IMG/VR virus record: IMGVR_UViG_3300033998_000157
Direction: 5' to 3' (one strand)
Source of the DNA: an uncultured virus (IMG/VR IMGVR_UViG_3300033998_000157)
Lineage: Duplodnaviria > Heunggongvirae > Uroviricota > Caudoviricetes
Length of the DNA: 64,000 nucleotides
This document shows positions 28,143 to 64,000 of this stretch, piece after piece (positions within the stretch are counted from its first letter, which is position 1; each line of letters opens with the position of its first letter). Both the position numbers and the translations under genes were made by a program. Under the pieces are notes generated by a model. That model did not search any database. It was not told the DNA's origin and was given only the letters and a program-made list of their open reading frames with translations.

Positions 28143-28217
28143 TGGTGGAGGCAGCAGGATTCGAACCCGCAACTGCTTGATTTAGAGTCAAGTGTGTTCC
28201 CGTTACACCATGCCCCC
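28143..28217 (-). tRNA. amber-decoding tRNA (anticodon CUA) with alanine identity elements
   Basis: GGGGGCA-TG-GTGT AACGGGA ACAC-A-CTTGA CTCTAAA TCAAG-CAGTT-GCGGG TTCGAAT CCTGC-TGCCTCC-A-CCA; G3.U70, A73, encoded CCA. Confidence 0.95.
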
Positions 28218-28356
28218 AATTCTTACATCTATATTGTAAAATGTGATGACAAAAATAACTTTCAAATTTTGGTAGATATACCCTGAAAGTAAATTAACAT
28301 CTTTCTATTGACGAAATTAGTTAATTCACATAAGAGTAAATAACGGGGGTGAATAT

Positions 28357-29523
28357 ATGGCGTTTGTTATTGACACATCAGCATTTATTATCGGAGCTCA
28401 CAAAAACTTTACAGACGAATTAAAAACCACATTCCAAGTAATCAAAGAACTAGACGGATTAAAAGAAAACCCACGAACTAGAAGAAGATAGTTAGATTAG
28501 CTACAAGATATTGATGAGTTATTAGACGAAGGACTACTACATATTGATATGTATGAGTATGAGACAACTGATATTTCTGTTATTGAAATTGCTACAGACG
28601 ACGATATTATATTAACAACAGACACATAGTTATATTTAAGGTAGAAAATACTTGGTAAGAAATGTGAGTTATTACAAGAATGTCATCCAGAACATGTTAC
28701 TAACCCTGTTAAAGATGTGTATGTTGATAAAGATTTGAGTGGGAAAGAATTAGAAGTAGATTGGAAAATGCCTAAATATACTTATGTGAAATTATCTAAT
28801 GGAATATCAACAAGATTAGGAAAATATGTTGGTGGCAAAATTGAATATATTGATAAGTCAAGTTTTAGAGTAGGAGATATAAAAGTAGAATCTAAATGTA
28901 TGGAACAAACAATGTTAATAGATTAGTTATTAGATATACGTATTCCGCTTGTAACTGTTATTGGTCCAGCTGGGTCTGGTAAAACATTCATAACATTATA
29001 GAGTGCTCTCTATTTAGTCGAGAAGGGGCTTTATGGAAAGATTATTGTGTAGGTACCACCTGTACAATTAGGAGGAAAAGATAGATACGGATATTTGCCT
29101 GGAAGTTTAGAAGAAAAAACAATAAAACAATTTTCAGGTATTATAGATAATTTAGAAACATTGTTAGGTAAAGAAGCTAAACTTAGAATAGAGGCATAGA
29201 TAAAAGGTGAAGATGAAATATTTGAAATACAATCATTTTAGAATATAAGAGGACGTTCTATAAAAAATTAGATTATTATTGTAGATGAATCCCAAAACAC
29301 AGATCCATTAGAATTAAAAACATTCTTAACTCGTGTTGATTTGGGATCTAAAATAATATTATTAGGAGACGTAGAACAAATCGATATAAAAAACAGGAGT
29401 TTAGAAAATAACGGTTTGTTGCACGTCGCTGATAAAATGTATGATTCTGATGTATAGACAAATATTGTACTTACTAAAACATACAGATCGTAGTTAGCAG
29501 AAGAATAGATAAACAGATTATAA
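28357..29523 (+). CDS. phoH: PIN-PhoH protein; TAG-recoded
   Basis: VIDTS, VIKELDGLK, TTD (PIN); GPAGSGKT, GYLPG, IRGRS, IVDESQN, LTRV..GSKIILLGDVEQID (PhoH); 388 aa with TAG as sense. Confidence 0.93.
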
Positions 29524-29548
29524 AATAACCGCCTTTAAGGCGGTTTCT

Positions 29549-30121: not shown

Positions 30122-30215
30122 CCTATCACCTCTTTTTTGTATTTTTATTATATTATAAAACATCAATAGAATAATAAGTTAATTAACAATAAAGTAGGAA
30201 AAAGGAGGTTAAATT

Positions 30216-30941
30216 ATGGCATAGGCTGCTGGACAACAAAGTACTCAAAAATAGTCACGTTTTAAAAAGTTTTAGACAAACACGTTAAGCTTCACATTTA
30301 ATTACGGATTAGGTTTTAAATGGATAAGCGACTATTCTGATTTAAGAAAAAATTATACATTATTACAGGTAATTGGTATGCAATTAGATGATTTAGCTGT
30401 TAATAAATAGGGTAGTGCATAGAAAGAACGTGTAACTAAAAGAGAATACAAGAAAATCAAAAAGTTTAAAGATCAAATACCTGTTGATGTGGAAAAATTC
30501 AAACCTCGAAAATCACACATACCTCGTGAATTTACTAAAGTTGGAGATATTTTACAAGCATATGGTGCTAAAAAAGTCGCAGGTATAAAAACAAATACTC
30601 CTGACAATCTAATTAAAAAGATAAGCAAATTTTTGATTACTCTTGAACATGCAAATCCGAAATCTGTTGAAAAGGTTGCTAATATGGAAATAGGTGAATT
30701 AGTAACCTTAGCAGGTAAAAATACTAAACATTTGTCAAAAGCATTAGGCATTAAATATGCTAAAAGTATAGCACCAAGGGCAATGCTTACTGGTTTAACA
30801 GGGTTTGTAAATGTTTCTGCTGCAATAGGTGCTTATAAAATTGCTAAAATGGCATTATCTGGTGGAGGTTCTTTACAAGACAATGATGAAGTGTATAGAA
30901 AGATAATTACAGGTAAATATATATCAGATAAATATTTCTGA
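30216..30941 (+). CDS. hypothetical late protein, possible ejection protein; TAG-recoded
   Basis: AGGAGG-ATG GCA TAG, open to TGA; hydrophobic Gly/Ala-rich C-terminal segment. Confidence 0.75.
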
Positions 30942-30954
30942 TGAGGTGATATAA

Positions 30955-31797
30955 ATGTAGAGTTTTGTATATAATCTAAACACACAGGAAATTGAGCAAC
31001 CTCAAAACACATCTATTATGAGGTTGGCTGGTAATCTTGTTTTAACAGGTATGTTGTATACAGAATTAGAAGCTTAGGTATCAATGGCTTAGTTATAGCC
31101 ATTTGGATATAAATTAAAAGATAAAGGCATGCTATTAGGAAGAATGAACCGATGGGTTTATGACAAAGTTTTAGATCCAATATATAGAAAAACGATTGGA
31201 ACCAGATTAGGAGATATAACAAAATTAGCAGAAGTTAGCGTTAAAGATTTAGATATGGGATTCTTTGGTTTCCAAAAAGGTGTTTAGGATAAATTTTTTA
31301 GTTTAGATAAATATTTATATGATACGGTAATACAACCATCAGGATTAAAATAGAGTGTTTCGAACTTCTTTGGCGGATAGAAAACATATAATTTATCTGA
31401 TGTATTAAGTGCAGCTAAAAACAAAAATATAAACCTTGGTAAATTGACCGAAAAGGAACTTAAAAAATAGTTAGTTGCTTCTAATATTTAGAGAGGCGTT
31501 GGTTTAATTACACAAACAGTACAAAGATATCAAATGTAGAATATTGCATTCACATTGGGTAAAGCTATATTTGATGCAAGCACTAATTATTATGAGAGAA
31601 ACCAAAGATTAAAGTATTATAGACGATTAGCAGGAATTTCTGGGTAGATAAGTGTACAAAGTAGAAATGAATTGAGTTATTCCAAATAGGAAGAACATAT
31701 CATAATGAGAAATATACAAAATGCAATGGTTACACAAAGAATCATAAATGATTAGGGAGTGTTTGGCACAAATCCTTATATGTCAATATATGGATAA
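30955..31797 (+). CDS. hypothetical late protein, possible ejection protein; TAG-recoded
   Basis: GAGGTG-ATG TAG AGT, 280 aa to TAA; absent from the ORF track. Confidence 0.75.
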
Positions 31798-31810
31798 TGG
31801 AGGTTAAAAT

Positions 31811-34800
31811 ATGGCTAATGTATTATTTGCTGGTTTAGAATCATTTAAAACCTTATTAGATACTTCTATTCAGAATTTACCAGAAATTAATCCGCATATA
31901 GAGTTTTTAGATAAAACATTTCAAAGTTAGGACTGGATAAATCAATAGGATGAAATAATAAAGCACATTGACGAAATTGCTAAAATATAGCAACAAAATC
32001 AATAGAATAAATAGATAGATAGATTTGATAATTTAAAAAACTATATTATCAATTATAAAACATATGCACCGCATTTAGGTGCAATTAAAAAAGTTATAAA
32101 TGATTACGGTGTAGATATAGAAGACTTAGAAAGAGTATTAGTAGAAAAACAAGATTTTCTATACAATATGTTTAATATGAGAGAATTATCTTTTGCAAAT
32201 GATGAAGATGCAAAAAAGATATTATAGATTGCACAATTTGGCGACTTTTTAAGATTACTATATGGAAAAACTAAAGTAAGCGGAATAGATGAATTCAAGG
32301 AAAGAACAATAAATGCAATAGGATAGTTAGGATAGTTTATTGATGACAAGCAACGACGTATAGATTTCCAAGAAGAAATTAAAAATGTTATAGAAAACAA
32401 AGCGAATGATTTATGGAATATCAGAGAAGATTTTATTAAATTCTCTGATATAACTGGTCCTGGAAGAGTAAGTACAGAATTAGAAACAATTTAGAAAAAA
32501 GGGGAAAAAATAAAAAAAGGTGCTAATGGTAAACTTATATCTGTTTAGGATGTTTTAGCATCTACTATCGGTTTAAAATCAAAAGCTATAACTGGTATTA
32601 CAGTTGATACATTAATAGAACCGGGTAAAGCATTTTAGGACTTTACCAACTTTCTTTAGAAAGAACAATAGTTATAGAATGCTTTTGATAAATTCTTAGA
32701 CGGAAAAATTTCATCAAACGAATTAATAGACAGTATAACTAAATTTACACCATATTAGGATAGAATAAGAAATATAGGTTAGTTCAAACAGTAGTTAGAT
32801 ACAATTCAAAAAACAATACCTAATGTAAAAAAACATACTGAAGTTATTATAAATTTATATGATGAAATAGATAGACATACAAGCGGACTTTAGTAGGACG
32901 ATAAAGAATTAGTGCTTAATGTTGCAAAAACACTTATAGGTTCAAAATTAGCATTAGATAATAACATGAATGTAAATATAAAAAATTATTTTGACATGGC
33001 TGAAACAATTAAAGACTTATATGCTCAGATAGAAGATTTGTTGGAAAGTGGTAAAAAACAATCATTAAATCCTGAACAAAGGCAATAGTTTGATGATTTA
33101 AAACAATCTATAAGAGATGTAATAATTGGCAACAATGATTCTGTTGCTAAAGTATAGGAAACAATTTTTCAATATCAAGGTGATTTTATAAAACAAGGGT
33201 TGGATTCAGATGAATAGTTTTTTAAATAGTTAGCAAAATTTGAAAGAGAAAACCTTGTTGATATACAAGTTGTATTATAGAGTGATGCTCAAAAAACTCT
33301 TGATAAATCTAACAAACATGTTGTTATATCTACTATAGTTAATGCTTTAACTTCAAATCAAGATTATACAAAACAACAACATGTATTAGTACCTTCAATG
33401 TATAACGCATTGTTAGATGGTGATATATAGGAATTTAATGAATAGGCTATTCAAGAAATGCTTAAAAGTAGAGTGAATGATTTAGAAGGTTTTGGATTTT
33501 CGCAAGATTTTATACAATTTGTTAGAAACGCAAATCCTCAAGATATAACTCTTAAAACTATAAGGGAAAACTTTTCAACGAACATAAACTCACTTATTAA
33601 TATAATGTTTGATACTATGCAAAGTAATATTTAGACTATTACAAAAAATCAAGATATACCTCAAAGTATTAAAAGTATTGTATAGTACTCAGCTTTATCA
33701 CGTTTTATAAATGTTGGAGAAACATTGGGATTAAAAACCAATGAAGATTTAATGAGAAAATAGTTCGTAACGTTAGGTTATGTAGAAATATAGCAACAAA
33801 AATAGTTTAATTAGTTTATTGATGAGGCAGAATTCAGCAATGTATATAATGAAGTTTTTAGAACATATGATGATATCAATTAGATTTATGATGGCACTAA
33901 ACAATATTTAAATGAAAGAATATAGTACAGAAGACAAATACAAGATATAGCAGGTGTAGATGAATATACAGTAAATGTTGAATAGAGCAAAAAGTATAAA
34001 GCAATTATCAATAAATAGCTTGAACTAAGAGAAAAAGACAAAATTGATTTTAACACTTTTTCTCAACAAATGCTACAAGATTTTAGGTTTTTAGACAATA
34101 ACGAATTAGAATATTTATATAAGTATAATATACATGATTTATATAAGTTATCAAAATAGAAAAAGATTAATATAAACAAAGTAAAATAGATAGATGTAGA
34201 AAAGCTCAAAATAAACACATTGTTTGACATTATAAAAACTAATGAATAGCCACAACAAATTACCCAACTAACAAAAATTAAAATATATAATACTCTTATA
34301 CAAAAAAATGCAAAATAGTTAGACATTCATGCTGGTAGTTATTCTTTAAATTATTTATAGCAAAGGAAATTTAAAGATTATATTGATATATAGATTTATC
34401 CACAAGCACGTATAGGGGCATTAACTGATTTTAGTCCATATAGATTTATAAGGGATCCAAAAGATAAAGAATTGACAAGAGCTTAGAAAACAGGTGCAGG
34501 TTTTGAAAATTAGTTAAAAGGCGGTTTGTACAGAAAAATAAGACCTATGATAGCCGCTGGAATATATGGTCCTGATATAGGATTTAAATATTAGTTACCA
34601 CCTTCAATGGAAAAACATTTACAATATTAGGGCTCTGATACAACACAACAATTACATGCACAACAATACAAACAATCAACAAAAGATAAATTAAATTAGA
34701 TTATCTCAGGAACATATGAGGATGAGGATTTAGAAGAAATAGAATATTCAGCAACACAAATGCGTAAAGGTGAAAGTATAGAGCTATACTACACTGGTTA

Positions 34801-37800
34801 TAATATTCCTTTTAAAGACACATTATCAGGTGGTTTGTTTATAACCCCTGGAAGCGGAGATTATTTTCAAGTTGGTTATGAACAAGCAACTCATTAGGCA
34901 GAAATTATTTTTGAACAACAAAAAGAGGCAATGTCATAGTTTAAATATAAAGTAGGAACATTATAGAAGATGTTCACTGACTATATGTATAAAAACACAG
35001 AAATGGGATTACCAATAGGTCAATATACATTAACTCAGTCAAGAGTGAAAAACGAAGTAATGTATCATTTAAGAAATCAATTATTATATAGAGGTTATTC
35101 ATATACCAAAAAATCATTTGATATTAATACATTCGATATAGGAAGATAGATTTTCTTATCAACAGAAGATTAGAACGTTAGAGATTATAAGTTATATTAT
35201 GTTTTAAATAATGTATTTGAACAAAATAAATTAATTGAATTCCTCGAAGAAAAGCAATTAAATACGAGCAAAATTACAATAAAACATTTAAACGAATTTT
35301 TGCAACAAAGAATACCAACTTTAACTACATAGGAAATATTAAAATTAAAAGAATTATTTGGTGATAATTTTACACATACAGATTTAATTAATTATATTCA
35401 AACATAGTTACCAAAACAAATACGAGATATATATACGTCAAATAAATTATATAGAGGTTTAAAGTTTGATTTACATAAAACAGCAGATTATTTAATAAAA
35501 CCACACTCTTTCGAATATCAAGGTGTAGGATTGCATTTAGTTCCTCACCAATTGGTTGATGCTATATCTACATCATCACCTAACACAACAGGTTCTACAG
35601 TAGCATTAAAACCATATGGTCATTAGGCTACACCAATTCAAGAACAAATAAATTTATTTTAGAAAGCAACAGATAGTGTTAGGGTTGTTAACACATATGG
35701 TTAGAAATAGGCTAATATTTTAATCAACCATGGTTAGATACAAAATAGCGAAATAGTACAACAAATATATGAAATAAACAGACAAAAAAGAGATTTATTA
35801 TTAAAAGGAAATGTGTATGACGGAATACTAAACGAAGAAGCCGCAGGAATTGAATAGGACGGTTTATTAATACCAACTATTGTAGTAGGTAAAGAAAACG
35901 AAGAGTTCTTCAAAAACATACTAGGAACAGAATTAAACCTTGCTGGTGATTAGTACTTTATCAATAAAGATCTTAGACAAGGTTTATCCAGAGTTTAGAG
36001 AGGTAGATTTGGTGGGTTTATATATGAAGATCTATCTGAATTAGTTAAGTTCACTGGTGGTAACAGATCAAAAGGTATGACAACATATAATTTTGAACGA
36101 AGAATAGCAATTAATGTCAATGGAAGAAGAGTTGAAATAGGTCTTGTTATGAACGAACAAGGAAAACGTAAAAACAAACTTGCTGAATTTGGTTAGGGTG
36201 CTTTAAGAGCTTAGAAATATATATATGGTGATAGCTTAGGATATAAAAGCTTTGAAGATGGAGTTGATGTTGTTAACTTACATAAAATCGATAATATATC
36301 TGCAAGAGAAGCAACAGAATAGTTATATGCTAAATAGCAAGGATATTTAGAAATATATGATCCGAAACAACAAAAATGGATAAATACAGGGATAGCTTCA
36401 ACATTAATTATGCATAAGGTATATGCTTACACCGCTAAAAGTCACGATTTTTCATGGGTTTAGATTTCTAACCAATAGGCACAAGTGTTGCCACAATTAC
36501 ATCTATTTAAACAAAATGCTATTGTTAGTTTATTACTATCTGGTGACGATGCAAATTAGGCATCTGAACAAGCTATTCATTTAAATAATATGCAAGTATC
36601 ATTATAGGAAGGTGCATAGGCAGGTCAAATAGCTTAGTTGTTAGAAAAAAATGTTATTAATTAGACTGGTTAGAAAACTGGATATTTAAAGAAAACAGCC
36701 GGTAGTCATTAGCGTAATGTTGGTATTTTAAGAGGCGTTTCTCATTATTTAGATGCTTTTAAATCAGTAAGAACAAAAAATATGTAGTATGATAATGTAA
36801 CTAAACTTAGATATATGTAGGATTAGTTAAGAAGTTAGGGATAGAACGATAGAAGATTAATAAGAACTTAGGAATTATTAGAAACATTATCTGATATTTT
36901 ATCAAATGATAAAATTACATTATCGTCAGGAACTAATGTATTGGCTATTTCAGAAAAACAAGCAAGAATATTATAGGAATTTGCAGGCGATGAAATATTG
37001 ATGCCTTCTATTGCTTCAAACTTTTTCCAACAATTATTTGGTTTTTCACATTCTGTTCAAACAAAAAATAAATGGGGAACAATGTATTTAACTAATCAAT
37101 TAATACAAACTGCTGATTAGGCTGGTAAATATGAGAGAGTAGCTGTTGGAAAAAATAAATATATACAAATGTCAAGACTTATAGTTCCTAAACTATTTGA
37201 TAATTCACAATCACAGTTGTACCTATCATTAGAAGCTGAAACATTTGTTAATGCTTATTAGGGAATTTATTCTATTTTGCAATAGTAGGCACATAAAGAT
37301 TATAGAATGTTAAACCAAGGTATCAAATTCTATTAGCAAAGAATGTTATCATTGGGTGATATACAAACAAGACAACTCACGAGACAAATGTCAAAAAAAC
37401 ACGGTATGTAGATTTACGCTCTACATGCAACTGGTTCGAATAGAATGGGTGGCGTTAAATAGCCTAAAAAATAGTTTATGACTTTATTAAAATCTTAGCT
37501 TATTAATAACTATATAGACGAAAACACTTTAAAAGGAATTGTAGGAGAAGACGAGTTTAATGAAATAATGTAGCAAAAAGATAGCGCTACTTTATTTGAT
37601 AGATGGTCTAAACAAGCATTATTAATCCGTAATAATAAAGGTACTCCTGTTGTATATTATAATCCTGATAGTACTGATTATTAGAATACTCAAGAAATAA
37701 GCGATTTAATTAATTAGAACGTACCTATCTTTAAGAATAGTGTAACCGATGTGAGAACATATTATAAAAATGGAAGATAGTTTAAAAAAGAATTGGCTAT

Positions 37801-38257
37801 TCAAATTGCACAAATGTATAAAGGATATTCAAGCATAAAACGTAATTAGCAACATATTCCAACAATATCAGCAGGATTATAGTCTATTTCACAAATGGAT
37901 TACGATCCTAAATACTATGCTAAAAAATATGGAGAAATGTGGGGATTAATTCAAAGGCATCCTATCATAGGTCATTTACCTCATGCTAGAATTGCAGGAT
38001 TCTCATAGGACAATACAATAGACGTACCATTATTCTTAGCAGAATAGATCGCAGGAGACGATGACGGTGATATGATTAACTTATTGCCATACATACTTAT
38101 CCAATAGGATATATATAAAAAGGGTATGGCTGACATAACACAATTTGGTGTATTTGATTATACAATGGTACGTAAATTCCAACTTAAAAATAGAACAGAT
38201 GAAATTTAGCAAGAGTTGCAAGAATTATATGACCGTTCAAATAGACACCTATTTTAA
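31811..38257 (+). CDS. putative single-chain two-barrel (virion) RNA polymerase, 2148 aa; TAG-recoded
   Basis: GGAGG-ATG; same frame open at all spot checks; VKFTGGNRSKGM near 36045-36080, GLIQRHP near 37942-37965, IAGDDDGD at 38048-38071. Confidence 0.75.
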
Positions 38258-38263: not shown

Positions 38264-38295
38264 ATAACCCGCTCAAATTGAGAGCGGGTTTTATT
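38264..38295. terminator. bidirectional intrinsic terminator
   Basis: aacccgctc..gagcgggtt hairpin between convergent TAA stops at 38257 and 38291. Confidence 0.75.
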
Positions 38296-38845
38296 GTTTC
38301 TAAAACAATTTAGCTAAATCGCCAACTATCTATTCAGTGTTTGTTTGAGTTTGCAGTCCTTTTAATTCTTTTAATATTTTTACCTTTCTATTTTCTAATT
38401 GTTCTATCAATGTGAGTACATTATGCAATTTTTTATCATATCTCTTTTTGCCATCTGCTGTTTCTGTGACTACTGTTTGTTGAAAACCTTCTTCCTAAAT
38501 TATAGATTGCTATCTCATTAATTGAACTTCTACCTACACCAATGATACCACCAAATTAGTGTATGTTTTGTTAGAAGGTTCTAATCCAAAACTTGCTATA
38601 TAATCATCAAACCACTTTTCCTAATAATAAATTTCTAACTAACATCTATTTCCAAGTTTAGGTTTATCTAATGGACAATCAATACCATACGGGCATTTAT
38701 CTTTTCCTTTACATTTCATAGCTAATGTCTATAACTGCCCTTTATCAAATTCTTCATGTTCCTCGATTTGCTATATAACTTCTGGTTTTATCTTTTTTTG
38801 TATTCGCTCTGGCAACTAATTATTCTTCACCCTATCTGGAAGCAT
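38291..38845 (-). CDS. putative terminase small subunit with Cys cluster; TAG-recoded
   Basis: AGGAG-ATG, 184 aa to TAA; CKGKDKCPYGIDCP; EEGFQQTVV..KLHNVL..IEQLENRK; divergent from terL. Confidence 0.6.
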
Positions 38846-38910: not shown

Positions 38911-40641
38911 ATGTAGGACGCTAAATGGAGCGATTATTTTTAGGATTACAGCGAATAGATTTAGTATGTTAAGAAAATACTTAAAGTAGACTTTGAACCT
39001 GCAACAATGTGTGTTAATTGTGTAATAAATCAAACAAAAAGAAAAAAGTTATAGTTTGATATTAAATGTACACCGTTAAGAGCAGAAGATTTAGATGATA
39101 GTAATAAAACACCACAAGAACTATTAGAGTTGATTAAAGTAAATCCATATTTCTTTGCAAAACATATTCTTAATGTTGAACCACGTGAATTCCAAAAAGA
39201 AATTATAGCATGTACATAGAATCGTAAAGTATTAAGAATATAGAGACGTTAGGGTAAATCTCATGCCATGGCAATGTATATGTTATGGTATTAGGTAACA
39301 AAACCAAAATCAAAAGTTAGGGTTATTGCACCGAGAGATATTCAAGTAAAAGAATTGTTTGATAAAATGGATGAAATGATTAAAAATTCTAAGGTGCTTA
39401 TTAATTCTGTATATAAGAGCAGCGGAAAAGGAATGCAATTATATAGAAAGGATCCATATGAATTTATGTTTACTAATGAATCTACAATAAGAGGTATTAC
39501 AACTGGCGATGGAGACGGTACTAGTGTTAGATCTCAATCAGCCGACTTATTAGTGTTGGATGAAACTGATTATATTACAGAAGAAGCTTTTGCTGCTGTT
39601 TATCCTTTGATAGCTTCTGATAACGAAACAGAAATGATTTAGGCTTCCACTCCTTCTGGAAAAAGGGGCTATTTCTATAACTGGTGTCATGATAAATCAT
39701 ATAAAGAAGTTCATAAAAGATATCAAGATACAGAAGCATATAATGAATCTACATTCCAAGAATTTTTAAGAAACATGACAAAAGAAAGATTCGAAAGAGA
39801 AGTTTTGGCAGAATTTACATTACAAGAATCTGGTGTATTCAGCAACGATTTAATAGATAGTGCTTTAGAAGAATATACATTCGACAAATTCCCGCCTCCT
39901 CATGGTATTTATACATTTGGTATAGATTGGAATGAATCTGTTGCTGGTGTTCATATAGTGGTTGTTAGATATGAACCACATCACAATAAATATAGAGTAT
40001 CTAATGTAGAGATAGTTCCACCTTCTGAATTTACTCAATTAGTATAGATAGAAAAGATTATTGAATTGTTCGAATGGTATAAACCAAAGAGAATAGTAAT
40101 GGACGAAGGATTTGGAAACACTCAAATACAAGCGCTAAAAAGATGGGGTATAGAAAATGGTAATGAGGAATTTTTGAATTAGCTTATCACTATTCCATTT
40201 GGAGGATATTTAGAACAATATGATAATGTAATTGGAACATATACAAAAGTTCCAGCGAAAGATTATATCGTTCAATTATCAAAACGTTTTTTAGAAAATC
40301 ATAAATTAATTTTACCATTGTCACAAGATACCAAAACAAAACTAGTCGGTCAGATGCGTGATTATGCAGTAGAAAAAGTGCTTGATAGCGGTCACGCAAA
40401 ATATTCAAAAGGAAACGTACATACATTAGAATAGATGATGTTATAGCTTTACGGCATGCATGATATAAAAGAAAGCATATAGAATTTATCTTTAATACCT
40501 TCTGCTGATTCGTATTTAAAACCACGAGAAACAATGTTAACTGCTGCATAGTCTGGTACAATACGTAATGTAAGAAAAAATTCTAACAAATTCAGAGAAA
40601 TAGATAAATTGTATAGAAATATTGGAGGTTGGCGATTGTGA
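38911..40641 (+). CDS. terL: terminase large subunit; TAG-recoded
   Basis: PREFQ, LRI*RR*GKS Walker A, LLVLDE Walker B, STPSG, FGIDWN nuclease motif. Confidence 0.92.
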
Positions 40642-41831: not shown

Positions 41832-41843
41832 TGAGGTGATAAT

Positions 41844-44120: not shown

Positions 44121-44133
44121 GGAGGTAATATCC

Positions 44134-50583: not shown

Positions 50584-51157
50584 TATTCAATCTAATATTG
50601 AAGTAATAGATCTTGTGGCAAAAGCATTTACTTAGTACTTAGAAGCAACAAATAGAGAATACAAAATAGCTATAAAACCATTATAGTCAGAAAAGAATTT
50701 AATATCATAGAATGAAAATGTATTGCTAATATATAAATTATATAAAAAACAATAGGGTAGTGCTAAAAAACCATTTGAAGAACGCACATTTTTAAGACCT
50801 TATTTTGTTAATTCAAATATAGGAGTTGGAGGAATAACATAGTACGAAAATTTTGAGTTCTTTTTTGACAATATGTTTGAATTTCAATTTTATTCCCAAG
50901 ATTATTTTATACTAACAAGATAGGCAGAAGATTTTATTGCATATATGGGTATGCTTTCAACTACTAAAAATGTGTTTTCAGAAAACGGCATTAAGTTACC
51001 TATATTTTGGGAACAAACACAGGATGAAATAGTGGAGGTCGGAAATACATTTTTATATAAATCATCATTATTCTATTAGTTCCAAACAAAACAAACTATA
51101 AGTAAATAGTTAGATGTTATAAGAAAGATTAATACTTATGTAGAATTAAGTCAATAA
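50570..51157 (+). CDS. putative tail completion protein; TAG-recoded
   Basis: AGGAGG-ATG, 195 aa, directly before the sheath gene. Confidence 0.6.
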
Positions 51158-51186
51158 TTTCAACATATTAAAGGAGGTATTTAAGC

Positions 51187-52683: not shown

Positions 52684-52737
52684 TTGAGTGTTGGCGAGGT
52701 TGCTCGCCAGCACCTTACATCTCGGAGGTGACAATAA

Positions 52738-53328
52738 GTGAGTTTAACATATTCTCCTTCAAATTAGATGCTATTAGCCAAATACGGTGATAAATATATA
52801 ACAATTGGAAATGCCACAAATATTGTTATAGAAACTGCCAGAAGTAAAACACCTATATTTGTGTTTGGTAAAAGCGAACAAGCAGCTATTGCAAGAGGTT
52901 AGCAATTTATTAACGGAACAATTGATATGGTTGTGTTTGATACAAAATTATGGGATGAAATTCTTAAAAGCAACAAACGTATAGTTAGTGCAGTAGAATA
53001 GGAATTAAACGGCAAAACAGCAGAAACAACAGGTAAATCTATATTTGGAATTGACACACTAAGCTATAAAATGGACGAAACAAACATAGATGATATTTTA
53101 TTAGATGAATTATTATTAATTTCTTCTAATCCACAACCTGTTGTAGAAAAAGATGAAAATGGACAAACACATACATATATAGAATATATGAAAGTAACTT
53201 TATATGATGTTTCATTCTTTGACTATAGTTATGCAAAACAAATTTCAGATGTTACGGCATTAGAAAGAGTATCATTTATGGCAAAGAAAATTTCTCCTGT
53301 AAACACTTATAAAGAAGAAATAAAATAA
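52738..53328 (+). CDS. tail tube-like protein 1; TAG-recoded
   Basis: GGAGG-GTG; YSPSN, KTPIFVFG, IARG..FINGTI. Confidence 0.7.
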
Positions 53329-53358
53329 TATTATTAACATATGAAAGGAGCGGTTAAT

Positions 53359-53937
53359 ATGGCTGATATACCATTATCACCAAGTAATGTTGTGATTTAG
53401 TTAAAAGATACAGGTAAAGTTATTGGTTCATAGACAAACTTTATGATTAACATAGATAGAAGAAAATTACCAGTATTAGCATTAGGTAGAACAGAACCAT
53501 TAGGATATGGTAGAGGATTCAGAATTATATCAGGTATGATTGATTACGTTGTATTACAAAACGATTTATTAAAAGAAATATATGATGATTCTGATAAAAA
53601 AATAAGCGAAATTATTTTAGCTAACGACGAATATGAAACATGGAATCCAATAGAAAATGCATTCTATAATGAAACAAGCGATAATGATAAGAGTGTAGAT
53701 ATAGGCGGAGCTAAGTATTACAAAATTATGCCTACAACATTAGATATGTTACCACCATTAGACATAATTGTATATGGTGTTGATGAAAATGGCGAACCAA
53801 GCGGTATGATAATTACAGGATTAGAATTTACATCAAGCTCATTAGTAGCTACAATAAACGACGTAGCATTAGCTCAAAGAGCAGAATTTGTTGCTAAATC
53901 TGTAACTCCATGGATGAAAGGTTAGAAAAAAGAATAA
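53359..53937 (+). CDS. tail tube-like protein 2; TAG-recoded
   Basis: LSPSN, KLPVLALG, GYGRGFRIISG, DMLPPLDI. Confidence 0.7.
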
Positions 53938-53980
53938 CAATAATGCCAAATCGATAATATATAAGAGGTGGTGAAAAAAC

Positions 53981-54742
53981 ATGGCTGATTTTATGGGTAA
54001 TCCATAGAATACGTTAATAACAATATCATTAAACTATAAATATAAAGATGCTGAAGGCAAAATAGCAACAGGAACAGAAACAATAACATTAGGTTAGGTA
54101 CAACAATTCGCTTATCAAGTAAGAAGAGCAAAAGCACCTATTTATGTAATTGGTAGTGTTTCTCCTATAACAATTGCAAAAGGTGCTAGAAGTGTAGCAG
54201 GAACAATGGCTGGTGTTATACTTTCAGAAAGTTTTTAGATGAATTTAATTAAATATTTCTGGGCAAAAACAGCAGATACATCAAAAGTAGATATTTCAGA
54301 CTTAAATGGTATATAGAGAATCTCAGCTGAAAAAGAAATAGAAGACATATATGGAACAAAACAAAACTTTTATGATAAATTTGTAAAACCATTGTTAGAA
54401 AGTTTAGGAGTTTCAGCAAACAATCAAAAAACAAAAGACGGTAACAATCCGTATGATATCGACAACAAATATAAATGGTTCCCAACAGATTCAATTCCAT
54501 TAGATTATGCAATGAAAATACCACCAATGTATTTAGATGAAGTTCCACCTGTAAATCTTAAAATGATTACTCCTATTAAACAAGAATCAGGTGTAATAAC
54601 ATATGAAGAAGTTGAATTTGTAGGATTAGAATTCTTAAACAATGACTTAGCAGTTCAAGCTGGTAGAGAAGCTATATTTGAATCCACAAACTTTATTTAG
54701 AGATCTGTTTCAAAAACAATTAAAACAAAATCATTCTCCTAA
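53981..54742 (+). CDS. tail tube-like protein 3; TAG-recoded
   Basis: KAPIYVIG, IAKGARSVAGT, DEVPPVNL. Confidence 0.7.
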
Positions 54743-54765
54743 TATTGTAAAAAGGAGTTAAAACA

Positions 54766-55422
54766 ATGAATAACAAATTTTTTACACCAAGTAATGCAAA
54801 AATATATGGGATTTAGCAAGTAAAAGAAAACAATGTTCTAAGAACTAAAATTGAAACACTTGATGATGTAGCACAGATAACTTTTAGCTCGCCAGTAGAT
54901 ACAAAACCTGTGCTATAGATAGGAAATAAATAGGTTCTTGGTTATACATATGGATAGAGATTATACGCGGGTACGATGTAGCTACCCGCTAATTCTTATC
55001 CTTCTTTTTATAATCTGTTTTCTGAATGGATAGTAAATATGAATTTGAAATATACAGAACAATTAACCACTTCTAAATTTATATCTGTAAATGCTGAAGA
55101 TTTGCCTCCATTCGATATTGTTATTTTAAGTATGCCAGAAACAATAACTTCTGATATGGATTATGTAAATGTGTTTGTATATATATTGAAAAATGTAAAA
55201 ATTATAGAAACTTCTGTTGATCTTAATACATAGAGCCCTAATGGGCAAGTTATGTTATATAGATTTTCTGCTACATATATAGGACAAAAAATAGCAGTTG
55301 TAGAAAATTCATCTAATATAGGCTTAGATGCCGATGAAATAAATAAAATAACTCAAATGAACACCAACACAATTAATTAGCCTAAGTTTACAGATTTAGT
55401 TCTTTCTAAATTGTACGGGTGA
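54766..55422 (+). CDS. tail tube-like protein 4; TAG-recoded
   Basis: FTPSN, KPVL*IG, GYTYG*RLYAGT, EDLPPFDI. Confidence 0.7.
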
Positions 55423-55426
55423 TAAT

Positions 55427-55888
55427 ATGTTTGATACTAATAATGAAATAATTATAAATTCACCAGATATTATTGTTTTATTCGATACTGTTGGATATAG
55501 TTCAGAAATTCCTTCTGATAGACATTTAATTATGAATAATATATATACAATCCAATTTAATACAACGGGATAGGCATATCCCGTTTTTGCTGTTAATGAT
55601 AAAGTGCCAACTTTCTATAGCAACACAAAAGATATTAAACAAGGATTTATTGCATATAACGCTACTGTTTTTAATATTTATGATATGATAGGTGCTATCA
55701 AAATAAAAGATACTAATTAGTATTATCTTCCTCAAATATTTATTTTATTTAAAGAAGATTAGTATATATGGCTTGGAGATGTTTATGTAAATACTCCAGG
55801 TTTTACATTATTACCAGATTAGCAATCGATACAATTAATTTCATCTTTTGTATAGCATAAATACAAAGTTATAAATAATCGAAGGTGA
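55427..55888 (+). CDS. tail/baseplate protein, divergent tube-like; TAG-recoded
   Basis: 153-aa frame to TGA; YPVFAV pattern; absent from the ORF track. Confidence 0.6.
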
Positions 55889-55892
55889 TATA

Positions 55893-56555
55893 ATGTTTAC
55901 AGGAGTATTAAGAAATGAGTTATTTGAAAATCAAATGTTATATGTTTTAAAACAAAATGCAGAAACCACAGCTTTTAATGGTTTTGATTAGACTATATTC
56001 GCATTAAAAAGTCATGTTCATACTGAAACATTAGAAATGTTAGTTAATAATTTAGAAAACAATTCTGTAATCCTTGATAATGTTTCATTTTTTCAAGCTT
56101 TTCCATAGCAAAGCTTAATTCCAATGGCAAACGTGTTTAATGTATCAGAAGTGCAATATATACCAGCAACACAACAAATAGAAGGTAGAATAGGATTTAA
56201 TTTACCAACTTTTGATATATTTGAGCAATTTGTTGCTACAGGTATTGGTACTTATCAAGGATTAAATAAAAAATAGATTTCTGTTCCTTAGTTAGTTGTT
56301 TTATTTAAAAACGATATGAAATTTTAGCATGTTTCAGCTGTTATATTGTCTGATATAACTATATATGGTTTTGAACACAAATTTGAAGCTGATTAGTTGC
56401 CAGAACAATTTATAGTTAGATTTGTATAGAAAGGAATTGAATATAAAGATTATAAATTTGAAGAATAGAAAAAATATAACCAGTTATTTAAAGATCCAGC
56501 TAAATTAAATATTGAAGATCAATTGTACGTTGAAAAAACAAATAAATTAGCTTAA
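55893..56555 (+). CDS. tail/baseplate protein; TAG-recoded
   Basis: AAGGTG-ATG, 220-aa frame to TAA. Confidence 0.6.
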
Positions 56556-56581
56556 TAGTTTTAATGAGGAGGACTGAGACC

Positions 56582-57049
56582 GTGGGAGATTTAGAATTTT
56601 TAAAAAAGGTAGAAGAAGAAATTAAAACAGAACAAGAAGAACAAAAGCAAGAAGAAAATAGCGATGTTCAAAGCGGTTGGATTGATACAGCAAATATTAT
56701 GGAAGAATTAAAAAAAGCAGCAGAAGAAATATTATACGAAAAAGATCCTAAACTAAAAGATAAGGTTGAAGAATTAAAGAATAAATACAAAGATGTGTAT
56801 GTGTATTTCTTTGATGATGAAGAATTTTATATTTATAGACCATTAACAAGATTCGAATACAAAGATATTACTTCTAAAACAGATAAACAAGATGAAATTA
56901 CAGAAATGATTGTATTAAAAGCTACATTATATCCAGAACTAACAGAAGAAAGATTAGATGGATTGAAAGCAGGAATTGTACCAACACTACTTGAGTTAAT
57001 ATTAAATGCTTCTAACTTTGGAGTTCAAAACCCTGTTGTAAAATTGTGA
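56582..57049 (+). CDS. putative tail assembly chaperone
   Basis: GAGGAGG-GTG; LKNKYKDVY, IYRPLTRFEY, LKAGIVPTL, SNF. Confidence 0.65.
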   Translation: MGDLEFLKKVEEEIKTEQEEQKQEENSDVQSGWIDTANIMEELKKAAEEILYEKDPKLKDKVEELKNKYKDVYVYFFDDEEFYIYRPLTRFEYKDITSKTDKQDEITEMIVLKATLYPELTEERLDGLKAGIVPTLLELILNASNFGVQNPVVKL

Positions 57050-57059
57050 GGATGATAAT

Positions 57060-57680
57060 ATGTTAAAGCCTTGGCAACTTATAAAATTAAAATAGAAATA
57101 CGGAGGAATATACGTTATTAAGCACAATGGATAGTTGTATGTTGCTAGGCAACCTACATTATTAGAAATTACATAGTAGTATGATTAGAAAAAGGTATTC
57201 GAGTTAGACACAGAGGAAATGTTTTTAGAACTTACAAAATCTGTAATGGTATATCCAGAAGACCCTTCTGATATTCCAGAAATATAGATTAAAATGTTAG
57301 CAGAAGCTATGTTGGATGATATACCTCTAACAGAATAGGAAGTAGAAAATAAAATAGCCGAATTAGCATTAGAAAATGATAATGTTTTTAAAGAAATAGC
57401 ATTAGAATTATGGTAGCAAGTTTCGGGAACAACAATACATGAATTCTACAATAGACCTATTAAAGAAGTTCTTGAAATGTATGGAATGTTAAAAATATTG
57501 ACTAGCGTAGCTAAGGAAGGAACTCAACAAGAATCGTATGAAGAGTATGACTATCCTAATATAGAACTAACAGAACCACAAACAACAAATAAACAAAACA
57601 TTCCTACTTAGATACCAAAAGACATGTTTGGAAAAGATTTAGATGAAGTGTTAAAAGCAATGTAGCAAGGAGGCAATTGA
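57060..57680 (+). CDS. second chaperone-like protein, paralog of 56582..57049; TAG-recoded
   Basis: LK*KYGGIY, YVARQPTLLE, VMVYP mirror the upstream gene. Confidence 0.65.
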
Positions 57681-57940: not shown

Positions 57941-57973
57941 TAGTTAATTTAATATAGAAAGGGGTGTGATTTA

Positions 57974-60900
57974 ATGGTCGATAACCCAATAGAATTAAAC
58001 AGACAAGCTAAAAAACAAGAAGTTGAACAATATAGAGAAGAAGTCGTAAATGAAATAACAAATCCTTCAATGAAAGATATATTTATAGCAGGATTAGCGT
58101 AGACAGCTGCTTCGAGAATGCTCGCTCCTGCTATGAGAAAGTTTTCTAAAATATTAGGTCAATAGATATAGAATGAAGATATTTATAAAAAAGCTATTGG
58201 TACAACAAATGTTTCTCAGTTATTGAGAAACACTTTTAATTTATATTATAAAGACTAGACAGCTGGCGACGAATATTAGCTATCAAATATATTTTAGACT
58301 TTAATAAAAACAAAAGTGAAGGGAAAAGCTGGAGAATTATAGTAGTAGGCTATAAGTTATTAGCCTATGGCTAATATTAATGTATAGTCTTTTTTAACTT
58401 ATGCTTCTGTTCAAAAAATGTTAGATCCTAATTAGAAGCTTAGCATTTCAAATTATTTGCTAGGTATGGGTATGGGAAATGCTGGATATTATGGCAAAGA
58501 AAAAGCCAAAGAAGCATATTAGAAAGTTGACCCAGAAGGTTTTTTAAAATACGAAATGGCTAAAACTAATTTACATAGAACAATTCCATTTGCAATAAAT
58601 CATATCGGCACAGGTATAATCACATAGCTTTTCGGTGCTGGTAGTTATATAAAAGGTACTTTGTTAGAAGATGCAGACAGAATCACACGTAGTAAAAAGA
58701 TGATGACAATATAGTAGAGTATGCTTTCTCCTAAAAGCATAAAATTATCATACCAAAGAATGTTAAAACAATCTGGTGCAGAAGTCGCACAAAATGCAAT
58801 AGGTTTACAAGCTATATAGCAATTTAAACATACTTTTGAAGATACTTTTGCAGGTGCTGAATTATCACATTTAAAACATAATGATATACATAATTCTTTC
58901 CAAAGATTAGCAATAAAAAGAACAAGAACATCTGGTAGAACTAAAAGTTAGGAAGAATAGTATTTATAGTTAGAATATTTTTTACATAATTAGGATTAGA
59001 ACGATCCTAAAATTAAAAGTTTTATTGAAGAAATACATTAGAGATTACCAAAAGAAACTACGCCTAAATAGTATCAAAAAGCTGGTTTAGAATAGGTAAC
59101 TTTTAGAGATATAGCAGAAGGTAAAGTAAATTATACAGATATAATGGGTTATGTAAAATCTTCTGATAAGATAGAAGAAATAAATGTATATAATCAAAGA
59201 ATGAGAAAAATTATAACAGAACTCGGTAAAAAGGGATTAGATTTAGATTTACAAGTTGGATATGGAATATATAGAAAAGGACAACAAATTATATCACTAA
59301 CACCAGGACATTTAAGTGCATTAAAAACGGCTAAATATATTTCAGAAAATATGGTTGTTCCTTATCTTGGTTTCAACCCTATTTCTACTATGCAACCTTC
59401 ATTCTTATTAGAATACAATTATTTTAGACCTTTTGTAGCAACATTTGAAGCGGACAAAAAGGTAGCTACCAAAGAAGGTATGAAAGAAGTTTAGGAAATA
59501 TAGGAAAGCGTATAGTACAGAACAAGACAAAATGAAATTAAAAGAAGAGCAGTATCATATAAATCTGGTTTAGGTGCAATAATAAATGATATTGTAAATA
59601 GATATCAAGGCACTGATATAGATAAAGGTACAGTGTTAAAAGCGTTAAACTCTTCAGTAGCAGATGATGAATTTAAAATTGCAGAACAAAATTTTATACA
59701 AATATAGTCATCATTAGGCATTGATAATACTGATGCTAAGAATATGTTTAATGCGATGAGATTTACAAATTATATATTACAAGACAATGTTAAACCAAAA
59801 ACAAAAACTTTAAAAAGTTTTGTAACAATGGTTAGCGAAACAGATTTTGCTATTAAGAAAATCCAGAAACAAACTGGCTTAGATTTTAGCGAAGATACAA
59901 TAGAACAATTAACTAATTTAGGGAAAGAATTTAATGCTATCAGAAGAACAATAAAAGAACAATAGAAAGAATAGACAATAACCTATATTGGTAAAAAACC
60001 TATATTAACAATAGGAAATAGAAATATAGATATCTCCAATTATGTATATGAACAAATAGTATTAAATAAAAACAGATTAAGCGGTTCTATTGTTGAAACA
60101 TATGCTAAACAAACAGGTACAATGAGATTAAAAGCAGAGGACAAAATAAATCCTAATGCTTTAAGAAATTTGCCATTTTATCAAGATTTTACAGAAGGCG
60201 AAACTTTCTTCGAAGAAGTTCATGATATGATAATTAGTCCATATACATACCACAAAGATTTAGCAGAAGTATAGGATACTTTGCATAGCAAAAAACAATA
60301 TGGAAAAATAATATAGTTAAAAAGAGCATTTTAGAAAAGAATAAATTCAAAAACTTTAAGCAGAACCCTTGGTAAAGGATTGCAAATGCAGGATTATGAA
60401 CAATTAATAGACTAGTTTAGGCAATATGGAAAATTAGGAAATTATTTTAAATATATGTAGGAAACAACAGAAGATGCTAATACCAAAAAATAGTTATACG
60501 AGTTATAGAACTTATTAGAAATGAACAGCTTTGAAAAAGTTGTATATTCTGATATTAATAGAAACATATCATCTGGTATTATGCAATTTACTGATGAATG
60601 GTTAGACGAAGTTGTTGGTAAACACGGTATCACTCGTAGAGATGTGCTTGTCACATTCGGATAGTTTATGCACCAATTAAACGAATAGATAACAGATGAA
60701 TTAGGAAACATAACAAAATCCTTTGATAATATTTCTAAGAATATAAGTGGTAGCGGACAAATTATTGATTTATAGAATAATTTCTTACAAAAGAATATAT
60801 TATCCCAAATAAACGAATAGTTAAAACCATTCACAGATTTGTATGACAATAAAAGGATGGCTTCTTATTTTGGAGATATTATAAAACATTATCCAGCATA

Positions 60901-63900
60901 TAAATTAGATGATGATATGATTAGAGAAACATAGAGAGGAATTATATCATCGCAATTATATAAACAACATATTATAGAAACATAGGTAAATAAATAGGGT
61001 AAAACATTATATAAATCATAGCAAGTCGGCAATTTATCTTTTGACACTTAGGTTAAACAATAGTTAAACGCATATACTCCAGAGGAAGTTGCTAAAAATG
61101 TACATAACTTAATAAGTTCGAAAACTGTAAATCAATATTATGATGAATTACTAACTTTATTTGGTTTTACATATGGTGGTAATTTAGCTAAAAACCATTT
61201 ATATGGAATACCTAAAATAAGAGATGTTAAGAAAATGCTTTTAGATGATATAGATGAAAGTATGTTAATAAATTCTTCCGAGCATGTAGGTAGAATTGAA
61301 AATAAATACGATATAGGAATTAAAGATAATAGATATATCACTATCGGAGAAATACAAGGTACTTCATTTAAAGATTTACTTAAAAAGATTTTTCCTGATG
61401 TATCTAAAGATCAATCTGAAGTTGGTAACGTTACATAGTGGTCTGTTTTATCTCATTGGGTTGTTCAAAGAACAACATCGTTAATAGAAGAATTGGGTTT
61501 AGGACGACCTAATGTATATGAATAGACTAATTAGTGGAAAGAATTTGGTGGAGTATTACAAAAAATTTCATGGATAGCTTAGGGTTTTTAGGCTTTTGGT
61601 GTGTTAGATTAGATAGTAACAACTGCAACAGGTGGAACAATAAGTCCTCGAAGATCTTAGTATTCATTTGCAAATGATGTATAGATTGGTGCAGTATCAT
61701 TATAGAACATTGTTGGGGCTGGCCCATATTTCAGACACCTACACGAAACAATGCCAGGGTATTTGGCTGCCACAGGAGTAATGTTGGGGGCAGCAGCTGG
61801 CGGAGTTCGTGGAATGTTTATTTTTGGTGGTTTAGGTGCAATGGCAGAACATTTGCCACATACAAAAGAATTTGTATTGCAATCAGAAGGAGTTTCTAAT
61901 GTACCAGTATATAGAGCACAAGGATGGGAATTCGGTAGAGAACCATATTATGGCGGTGCTGTTAAAGAATATAGACCTTCATTATGGTATTTGAATAAAA
62001 AGGAATGGCAATATTCTCCATTGTTATATGGATCTAAAATGGAATATCAAATATTTGGACAACCTTATCCAACACCATTGAATTTATTTGGAATTATACC
62101 AGCAATATCAAATCATTATGATAAAAAATTGTTAATGTACAGACCATATATGAGAACTGGAAAACCAGAAGGCACATTTATACCTTAGTTATTAGGAGTG
62201 CCTGGAATATCTGATAATCCAGTAGGATTTTTAGCTAATTTTGCAGTAAGAGCTTTAATGCCAACTGAAAATTTGTTAGATGATTATGTAGCTCAATTGC
62301 AAAAATATCATATAAGCATTATGCAACAACAACCAACAATAGAATAGGTTCAATAGTATATAGTATCTTCATAGCTATAGGATCAACAATTATCTATAAG
62401 AAGAGCAGTAGGGTTTAATAATGAATAGGTAAGTTAGCAATATCAATTGTTAAAATCAAAAGGCGAACGAATGTATGCGGATTATTTAAAAAATTTCGAA
62501 TATTCAATGTATAGAATTGAAAATTTAAGTGAATGGTTCTAGGAATATACTGGTTTTATTGGTTTTGCAGCTTCTATGTTAAACCCATTTGATAGTGGTA
62601 ACGGATTGAGAGAGATAACTATTTAGACATCTGATTTTTATAGATCACCAGAACGAATGTATTATCAACAAAACTTAGGTAACATCTTTGGTTTAACTGA
62701 ATTTTACCGAAGGTTAAATCAAAGTCAGAGAAGATTAGAATATCAAATAAATCCATTGCCAAATGCATATATGACATTAAATTACCCATGGCTCACAGAC
62801 AGATTCTTACAAGGAGATCCTTATTAGAAAATAAATTATGGTGAAATAAGATTGCCTGGACCGGGTTACGAACAATTTAGAGGTTCTGTTGATGGTTATG
62901 GACCAATAGATATTTATAGAATTTTATCTAATGTTTCTCCTTACTCCTCTGCGACAGATGAATAGGAAAAAGCAGTTGAACAAATACAAAAAAATGAAAC
63001 AACTGACCCAAGATTAAGATATATTATACAACAATAGAAAGAAGAACGTAAAGCAGTTCAAGAAGGATTTAAAACAAGAGAAAAGACATTCACTATTGAA
63101 TTAGCCAAAGAAAAATATACAATGGAAAAATATTTAGGCGAAGGAAGATTCCAGACAGCAGAAGGTGAAATTGTCGAATTAAGAGGTTTTACAACAGATA
63201 TAGATGCAGTTGCTAAAAGAATTTTTGAAACTCAAAATGTAAAAATAGAAGAAGCTTATAAAATAGCAGAAGAAGAAATAGCAGAAACAGAAAAACAATT
63301 AAAAGCATTAGAAGGTCAACAAGTAACATTATACGTTCCAGAAGACGAAGGTTTGAAATATAGATATTATGATAAAAATGATATTAGAACACAAGCTATT
63401 TTGCCTAAATTGAAATATTCAAAGCATATGCGGACAGATGATACTTCGCTTGATGTTAGATAGAATCATAGTTCAAACATTATAAATAGAGCATGGGAAA
63501 ATTTCTAGCATATGTTTGGATTTGTGCATGAAAAATTCATTCCAGTTCGTTCTTAGTTTGAAGAATATTCAAGATACTATGCATATGGACAATATAGAGC
63601 ATTGTGGCAAAAGCCAATATCAGATATTCTATTACCAAGTTAGTTAAATACATTACAACTTAATCCTTTCGAATAGTCTGCTCATAGTTAGTTTGTAGGA
63701 TATATGTTAGGTGCTAATTTCCAAACAAAAATTTTCTTTGCTGGTATTAATGCCACAGTTGGTGCAATAGGTTCTATATTAACACCAAGGAGTTTGATAT
63801 TGCCAGATAAAGAACGTAGTAGAGAAATAGAAGAAGAAACTATGTTTATAAAACAACAACAAGGAGCAAAAGGATTTACTGATTATAAACAACTACCTTC

Positions 63901-64000
63901 ATTAAAACAAATGCAGAAATTGTTACCAATGACAGAAAGAAGTATGTTTTCCAAATTGATAAATTAGCCAAAAAGTGATTGGGATAAAATATTAGCAGTG
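57974..64000 (+). CDS. giant virion protein, tape-measure-like, over 2000 aa, runs off the window; TAG-recoded
   Basis: ATG 57974 is in frame with ORF fragments 59144, 59744, 61235, 61751, 63122 and 63704; follows the tail chaperones; Gly/Ala-rich hydrophobic segments. Confidence 0.75.

Follow-up and report, generated by a model that had tools for sequence, protein, structure and literature searches.

TAG is very probably read as alanine in the late genes of an uncultured phage

In the late genes of the uncultured phage represented by IMG/VR virus record IMGVR_UViG_3300033998_000157, the codon TAG is very probably read as alanine. The analysis covers a stretch of 64,000 nucleotides (nt) of this record (hereafter, the window), with positions 28,143–64,000 in focus. 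The choice of Ala against Gln is supported, at the level of sequence, by profile columns at TAG sites, by the identity elements of a phage-encoded tRNA with anticodon CUA, by compensation between codons within the genome, and by the DNA of relatives. Recoding of stop codons in phages is known; the new part is the different amino acid.

The window has a G+C content of 28.7% and consists of two parts, the left 28 kb, which is ordinary coding DNA under the standard code (code 11), and the remainder. Open reading frames (ORFs) of at least 100 amino acids cover 23.8% of positions 28300–64000 under code 11, 27.3% with TGA as a sense codon, and 81.7% with TAG as a sense codon; the last increase exceeds the >10% criterion for stop-recoded phages. 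Read with TAG as sense, the DNA from 28357 onward resolves into closely packed genes, all of them on the plus strand except 38291–38845 (minus strand). None of the 58 genes of the window is terminated by TAG; 42 close with TAA and 16 with TGA. The 24 complete late genes contain 294 in-frame TAG among 9375 codons, off-frame TAG occurring at a similar rate (531 in two frames), and no in-frame TAA or TGA, with TAA (n = 17) or TGA (n = 7) as terminators. Addition of the open-ended last gene brings the late total to 370 TAG in 25 genes. The preliminary description of this DNA, made from the sequence, had stated that frames from 28.3 kb on are broken only by TAG and close with TAA or TGA, and had proposed the comparison of coding density; both the statement and the comparison come out in its favor. 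The strings it quoted are found in the translation with TAG as X, namely, LIDXLLD, FITLXSAL, IIVXVP, SFXNIRGRS, KNXIIIVDE, YLRXKILG, and RSXLAEEX in the PhoH-like ATPase, and RIXRRXGKS and LEXMMLX in the large terminase (TerL). Codon 2 is indeed TAG at 21678, 30955, and 38911; among the late-gene starts, Met-TAG is seen twice and Met-Ala eight times.

The left arm has 12 TAG among 7374 codons in 34 genes, all within six small genes (1404–2141, 5726–6289, 6286–6678, 6671–6991, 7006–7344, and 21678–22181). The recoding is thus concentrated in the late and probable lysis genes, the label "late" following from gene function; the preliminary claim of recoding in the late genes stands, except that recoded genes occur in the left arm as well. 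The region is also present in public data, where contigs from three runs, belonging to two studies, match it with 0–1 differences per piece, one of the runs possibly being the source of the window itself. Hence, the TAG codons are not assembly errors, a concern that the preliminary description had raised.

To identify the amino acid, we used 160 loci of IMG/VR that surround PhoH or TerL relatives, and accepted as homologues only stop-to-stop ORFs under code 11, which are therefore free of TAG. Seven late proteins have 33–80 such standard-code homologues each at E < 1e-5; profiles were built from the homologues alone, and the window protein was aligned onto the profile. Match columns hold 42 of the 58 TAG codons of these proteins. 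Scoring of the 42 columns by raw emissions, which is the logic of Codetta, yields Ala as the best residue, followed by Ser (lower by 20.1 natural-log units), Thr (29.1), and Gln (56.0), in line with the preliminary claim that TAG sits at alanine positions and that Gln fits them poorly. As a control, the same scoring recovers 36 of 41 sense codons with at least 10 columns, the misses being Phe, Met, and Trp, assigned to Leu, and CAC, assigned to Lys. Log-odds against background at TAG are 42.1 bits for Ala, 5.9 for Thr, and 1.6 for Gln; the profile is similar to those of the Ala codons GCA (61.9 bits over 60 columns) and GCT (46.3 over 40). The background-normalized log-odds misassigned 18 sense codons (mainly of Leu, Phe, and Ser, also of Ile, and some rare codons), and raw emissions were added for this reason; TAG is assigned to Ala by both scorings.

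We also resampled the columns, with 2000 draws of 42 columns per residue class (Cys, His, and Trp, with fewer than 42 columns, were excluded). Ala is the best residue in 100% of the Ala sets, in 0.2% of the Ser sets, in 0.2% of the Thr sets, and never in the other 13 classes; the maximum Ala margin in any non-Ala set is 1.0, compared with 20.1 for TAG. Ala is the top residue in 16/42 TAG columns, 22/60 GCA columns, 16/40 GCT columns, and 3/65 CAA columns. In the solved PhoH-like structure PDB 3b85, the residues opposite five aligned TAG codons are A, A, T, A, and A, a sixth TAG falling in a gap, and TerL homologues at middle distance have Ala at TAG columns 114, 128, 244, 379, 508, and 512.

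A tRNA gene lies beside PhoH, the first gene of the recoded block, and its 3′ end is the start coordinate of the finding in the preliminary description, which had not mentioned a tRNA:

28143–28217, minus strand: suppressor tRNA with anticodon CUA, the only tRNA in the window (ARAGORN; Rfam tRNA, 66.9 bits)
28071–28094, minus strand: terminator-like hairpin and T run, 49 nt downstream of the tRNA (10 pairs, six of them G-C, then TTTTTTG), assigned by consensus match only

The acceptor stem of this tRNA(CUA) has the pairs G1:C72, G2:C71, G3:U70, and G4:C69; the discriminator is A73, the CCA end is encoded in the gene, and the minimum-energy fold of the tRNA is a canonical 7/4/5/5 cloverleaf with a variable loop of 5 nt. 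Among 61 tRNAs found by ARAGORN in the 160 control loci, G3:U70 is present in all four tRNA-Ala and in none of the 57 others. The acceptor ends of the window tRNA match those of tRNA-Ala(UGC) from loci L165 and L169. Recognition by alanyl-tRNA synthetase (AlaRS), an enzyme that makes no contact with the anticodon, depends chiefly on G3:U70, as set out in the available sections of PMC5389517. The D-loop, where G20 is a minor AlaRS determinant, has 7 nt with three G (positions numbered by eye). ARAGORN labels the window tRNA as tRNA-Pyl. We rejected this label, since it reflects the anticodon alone and is contradicted by the canonical cloverleaf with a 5-nt variable loop; tRNA-Pyl has an atypical fold with a 6-bp anticodon stem, a 3-nt variable loop, and a small D-loop. 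Members of the PylS and PylBCD families are absent from the window proteins scanned.

Identity elements for glutaminyl-tRNA synthetase (GlnRS) are a weak 1:72 pair, G3:C70, and G73. In the control loci there are three Gln tRNAs, which begin with U1 or A1 and carry G73, in contrast to G1:C72, G3:U70, and A73 of the window tRNA. This bears on the reading of TAG as glutamine (code 15), with the suppressor charged by the host GlnRS by virtue of its U35-containing anticodon, which we consider highly improbable. Precedent favors it. In the accessible text of Borges et al. (10.1101/2021.08.26.457843), TAG-to-Gln and TGA-to-Trp are the only changes observed in phages with a code unlike that of the host, and the phAss-1 paper (PMC10607447) and a 2026 survey of jumbo phages (PMC13037316), in their accessible parts, assume TAG to be Gln, so that Gln is the sole meaning given there for TAG in phage genomes. 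Further, of 29 phage tRNA(CUA) assayed in E. coli extract, 28 inserted Gln and one, tRNACUA-151, inserted Ala at UAG, according to the available portion of a 2025 preprint (PMC12636597). However, the alignment of TAG with Gln expected under code 15 is not observed in the 42 columns, where, apart from the deficit of 56 units, the mean probability of Gln is 0.040, as compared with 0.140 at CAA columns. Three TAG within one membrane helix also argue against Gln: gene 6286–6678 has four TAG, three of them inside its N-terminal hydrophobic helix; the preliminary description had noted these three.

TAG and the GCN codons compensate each other within the genome. Over the 25 late genes, the percentage of TAG is negatively correlated with that of GCN-encoded Ala (Spearman −0.62, p = 0.001), and the sum of TAG and GCN is 6–10% in 24 of the 25, being 3.7% in the single gene without TAG. 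Gln encoded by CAA and CAG is not depleted, constituting 3.7% of the late-gene codons other than TAG versus 2.7% in early genes. If TAG is counted as Ala, 370 of the 921 late-gene Ala positions (40%) are written with it. The genes of the recoded block are as follows:

28357–29523, plus strand: PhoH-like ATPase, first gene of the block, 13 TAG (Pfam PF02562, 1.1e-37)
30216–30941, 30955–31797, and 31811–38257, plus strand: late genes of unknown family with 5, 13, and 101 TAG, respectively (ORF calls; Pfam and PHROG scans gave no match)
38291–38845, minus strand: small recoded gene beside TerL, 10 TAG (33 standard-code homologues)
38911–40641, plus strand: large terminase TerL, 16 TAG (Pfam Terminase_6N, 4e-6)
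40629–44120, plus strand: two late genes of unknown family, 14 and 32 TAG (ORF calls)
44110–45564, plus strand: portal protein, 10 TAG (phrog_9232, 7.6e-25; 75 standard-code homologues)
45605–46885 and 46914–47744, plus strand: head genes of the late block, 5 TAG and 1 TAG
47779–48984, plus strand: major capsid protein, 3 TAG (Pfam Phage_capsid_4, 6e-14)
49065–57680, plus strand: tail and neck genes, 0–15 TAG each
51187–52683, plus strand: sheath, 1 TAG against 47 GCN (phrog_16991, 4.8e-16; Pfam match weak)
57974–64000, plus strand: giant late protein running off the window end, 76 TAG (ORF calls)

The share of TAG among Ala positions is heterogeneous in the late genes (chi-square 106, p = 2.5e-12), being 2% in the sheath, 4% in 46914–47744, 12% in the capsid, and about 50% in the large proteins. 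Genes for the most abundant virion proteins avoid TAG. Avoidance of the G-C step as the driver of TAG use was considered and rejected, given GC dinucleotide ratios of 1.22 (early part) and 1.25 (late part).

Public proteins include full-length relatives of PhoH (42–63% identity) and TerL (50–60%). These are rich in Gln (5–12%) and poor in Ala (2–5%), and have Q, or else A, at the TAG columns of the window, which by itself speaks for Gln. On standard-code profiles, their Q residues collectively prefer Ala in 15 of 37 TerL and in 13 of 14 close PhoH proteins; in the remaining 22 TerL and all 26 more distant PhoH they prefer Gln (Glu or Lys in two cases). The DNA of relatives was obtained by scanning metagenome contigs with a pattern that describes Ala-type tRNA(CUA) genes. 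As in the window, such a gene adjoins PhoH in L195, L230, and L252 (PhoH 55% identical) and in L218 (44%). All four loci are strongly TAG-recoded; in L195, coverage rises from 26% to 92% with TAG as sense. When TAG positions are set aside, the identity between the L230 gene and P0010, a public cluster representative, is 99.2%, and P0010 shows Q at all 22 TAG codons (22 of 22); therefore, the Q residues in the database are TAG translated by rule. On the standard-code profile, the 18 TAG columns of L195 PhoH yield Ala as the best residue (Ser −8.4, Gln −21.2 natural-log units), and so do the 14 of L218 PhoH (Leu −12.2, Gln −23.3). The codon alignment of PhoH relatives shows TAG conserved in at least eight columns and exchanged with GCN in seven, despite the two to three base changes needed. 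The nearest standard-code TerL relatives (IMG/VR loci L081–L084, 41–43% identity) have a G+C content of 44–53%, versus 28.7% in the window and 38% in L195; thus, in this group, recoding accompanies low G+C. A sheath search of IMG/VR returned no close relatives, and the protein P0006 as a query gave one distant match in phage records and no close relative there or in genome contigs.

Several observations weigh against the reading as alanine. The Ala margin of TAG is at the 2nd percentile of true Ala column sets (median 29.2), hence TAG sites are somewhat less Ala-specific than GCN sites, and homologues have K/E, P, G, I, or T in several of the TAG columns. The window tRNA also has a D-arm unlike that usual in tRNA-Ala. 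CUA anticodons attract GlnRS, and some insertion of Gln through this affinity is possible. Among the closest relatives, TAG exchanges with Ser codons at about eight PhoH columns and with CAG at two. Finally, in L221, a locus with an Ala-type tRNA and a minus-strand TerL, Ala is ahead by only 1.8 natural-log units over 16 TAG columns, and three TAG stand opposite conserved D, C, and Q columns, due either to misalignment at about 30% identity or to a different or looser reading of TAG. The lower Ala specificity is compatible with TAG having arisen at tolerant sites through one change in a codon for Lys, Glu, Ser, Gln, Leu, or Tyr; a minor second reading of TAG besides Ala is also possible.

It is very unlikely that TAG encodes serine or another small residue. 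Ser comes second in the column test, TAG exchanges with Ser codons at about eight PhoH columns among relatives, and the Ser codon TCG is one base from TAG; however, draws from true Ser columns put Ser first in 99.9% of cases and Ala first in 0.2%, and Ser at TAG remains 20.1 units behind. Bacterial tRNA-Ser has a long variable arm, which the window tRNA, with its 5-nt variable loop, lacks. Somewhat less improbable, yet still unlikely, is mixed decoding, mostly as Ala with an appreciable admixture of Gln through mischarging, or of termination by release factor 1 (RF1), TAG then acting as a leaky gate on late expression. This would agree with the Ala margin being below that of typical Ala columns, with the near-absence of TAG from the most abundant proteins (1 versus 47 GCN in the sheath, 1 versus 22 in 46914–47744, and 3 versus 23 in the capsid), and with TAG at about half of the Ala positions in large, low-copy proteins. 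On the other hand, the proteins with 76 and 101 TAG would need very efficient reading of each TAG for a useful yield, and the TAG column statistics closely match those of GCA and GCT.

The decoding of TAG as alanine probably proceeds as follows. The phage tRNA(CUA), with its alanine identity set, would be charged with Ala by the host AlaRS, since this enzyme ignores the anticodon; UAG in the virion, packaging, and probable lysis genes would then be read as Ala, RF1 presumably being out-competed at this codon. TAG is missing from the early genes, those for nucleotide metabolism, replication, and partition, and hence a naive host can translate them. TAG would serve as an AT-rich fifth alanine codon in genes that are probably expressed once the tRNA accumulates. 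Alternatively, the host itself might read TAG as Ala and the phage might follow the host code. This is very doubtful, since no bacterial TAG-to-Ala code appears in the accessible part of the Codetta paper (PMC8629427), the 34 left-arm genes use TAG at only 12 of 7374 codons and write their Ala (4.4%) with GCN, and the phage brings its own tRNA(CUA).

Beyond the relatives, the Ala-type tRNA pattern was found in nine stretches of IMG/VR, four loci of which have a true tRNA(CUA); in two of these four, coverage increases by 27–33 points with TAG as sense, and in both the suppressor adjoins tRNA-Ala(UGC). The 20-kb loci L162, L164, L165, and L169 have almost no matches in the local standard-code homologue set, and L215, with two TAG columns only, is uninformative. 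One of the IMG/VR loci with a true Ala-type tRNA(CUA) belongs to an unrelated 115.7-kb phage; its TerL carries 15 TAG, and the 11 of them in match columns yield Ala as the best residue (Ser −6.2, Gln −10.9), based on 113 full-length homologues of the 150 matches listed. In metagenome contigs, the pattern is present in at least 120 stretches. Among the matches listed, 81 of 119 metagenome loci have a tRNA(CUA); these tRNAs comprise 49 distinct sequences, of which 46 have G3:U70, and 17 of 25 tRNA(CUA) loci of at least 5 kb gain at least 10 coverage points with TAG as sense.

A pattern blind to the acceptor stem (the anticodon loop and T-loop of the window tRNA) gave 65 IMG/VR tRNA(CUA) loci with 43 distinct sequences, none of them with G3:U70; hence, the Ala type is a minority in this collection, which counts against its dominance. 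A strict Gln-type acceptor pattern matched five IMG/VR stretches only, too few for a comparison of rates. The 43 tRNAs (loci L296–L372) show 23 combinations of 1:72, 3:70, and N73. Given such varied acceptor stems and discriminator bases, TAG may mean more than Gln and Ala across phages. Separately, in L166 (10000–10075) and L167 (10000–10075), ARAGORN reports a tRNA-like gene whose anticodon loop is enlarged and whose anticodon, "tcta", has four bases. On balance, we lean slightly toward TAG-to-Ala being a recurrent phage code, which would arise easily as AlaRS ignores the anticodon and would provide AT-rich phages with a cheap Ala codon that withholds late proteins until the tRNA is made.

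A full-text literature search found no report of a phage genome using TAG as Ala. Thus the preliminary statement that this code had not been described for a phage holds for genomes; it does not extend to tRNAs, given the insertion of Ala in vitro by tRNACUA-151. UAG is a sense codon, for Ala or Leu, in chlorophycean mitochondria; there the codon and, in some lineages, its meaning are the same, with the difference that the mitochondrial code applies to the whole organelle genome, while the phage switches between early and late genes. The tRNACUA-151 of [quoted passage not shown] (PMC12636597) resembles the window tRNA in being phage-derived and in having a CUA anticodon, and it inserts Ala at UAG with E. 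coli enzymes; it is a single tRNA observed in vitro, its Ala insertion is described there as being of unclear biological relevance, and the accessible part of the preprint contains no analysis of phage genes, whereas the evidence here is at the genome level. The code 15 phages (crAss-like, Lak, the Garnet, Topaz, Jade, and Agate clades, and the phAss-1 group) likewise have TAG in structural and lysis genes with early genes free of it, do not use TAG as a stop, encode their own tRNA(CUA), and rely on a host synthetase. In contrast, their TAG aligns with Gln in the available passages of 10.1101/2021.08.26.457843 and PMC10607447, whereas the TAG of the window aligns with Ala and the window tRNA bears determinants of AlaRS, not of GlnRS. 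Laboratory amber suppressors with G3:U70 provide a further parallel: according to the accessible text of PMC5389517, UAG in E. coli is read with high efficiency by a tRNA that combines G3:U70 and a CUA anticodon, and allo-tRNAs inserted serine, alanine, or cysteine according to the identity element. Those tRNAs, tRNA-Ala(CUA) and allo-tRNAs, are engineered, while the window tRNA is natural and would serve hundreds of codons.

The recoded genes of the left arm include the following:

5726–6289, 6286–6678, and 6671–6991, minus strand, and 7006–7344, plus strand: cluster of four recoded small genes, two with N-terminal hydrophobic helices
21678–22181, plus strand: gene with TAG as codon 2

From hydrophobic helices and gene size only, the cluster at 5726–7344 is a possible lysis cassette. 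Other left-arm products identified by Pfam are a thymidine kinase, a thymidylate kinase, ThyX, a PD-(D/E)XK nuclease, an intein-bearing ribonucleotide reductase, two ParA-like ATPases, a Rep3-type initiator, and a GGDEF protein. The large subunit of the ribonucleotide reductase is split over two minus-strand ORFs, 19637–20524 and 15881–19321, the latter containing an intein with a LAGLIDADG endonuclease (Pfam); the two ORFs are about 315 nt apart, and this gap may represent an intron or a further insertion. The ParA-like ATPases and the Rep3-type initiator (4855–5586, 23554–24408, and 26289–27614) occur alongside virion genes, which suggests plasmid-like maintenance and a possible phage-plasmid. 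The GGDEF diguanylate cyclase domain protein (12180–12767, minus strand) has a hydrophobic stretch at the N-terminus, and 3074–3430 (minus strand) encodes a homologue of the STIV B116-like family (Pfam PF08960, 2.6e-16). In the right arm, the 2148-residue product of 31811–38257 (plus strand) has an Asp-rich GDDDGD near the C-terminus that, by eye, resembles the metal site of multisubunit RNA polymerases; this protein may be a candidate virion RNA polymerase.

Work on recoded phages, gene callers, and databases treat TAG as Gln, which here would give a wrong residue at 370 positions in 25 genes. If the Ala reading is true, every TAG of this lineage is given the wrong residue in public translations, and if the code is recurrent, thousands of residues are wrong in deposited phage proteins that have Gln at every TAG. 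The finding gives genome-level relevance to the lone Ala-inserting phage tRNA seen in vitro in the accessible part of PMC12636597, and is predicted to offer natural, efficient Ala amber suppressors. It also provides a testable case of codon use falling with protein abundance. Generally, Ala would be a second natural meaning of TAG in phages, the amino acid following which of the host synthetases ignore or tolerate a CUA anticodon.

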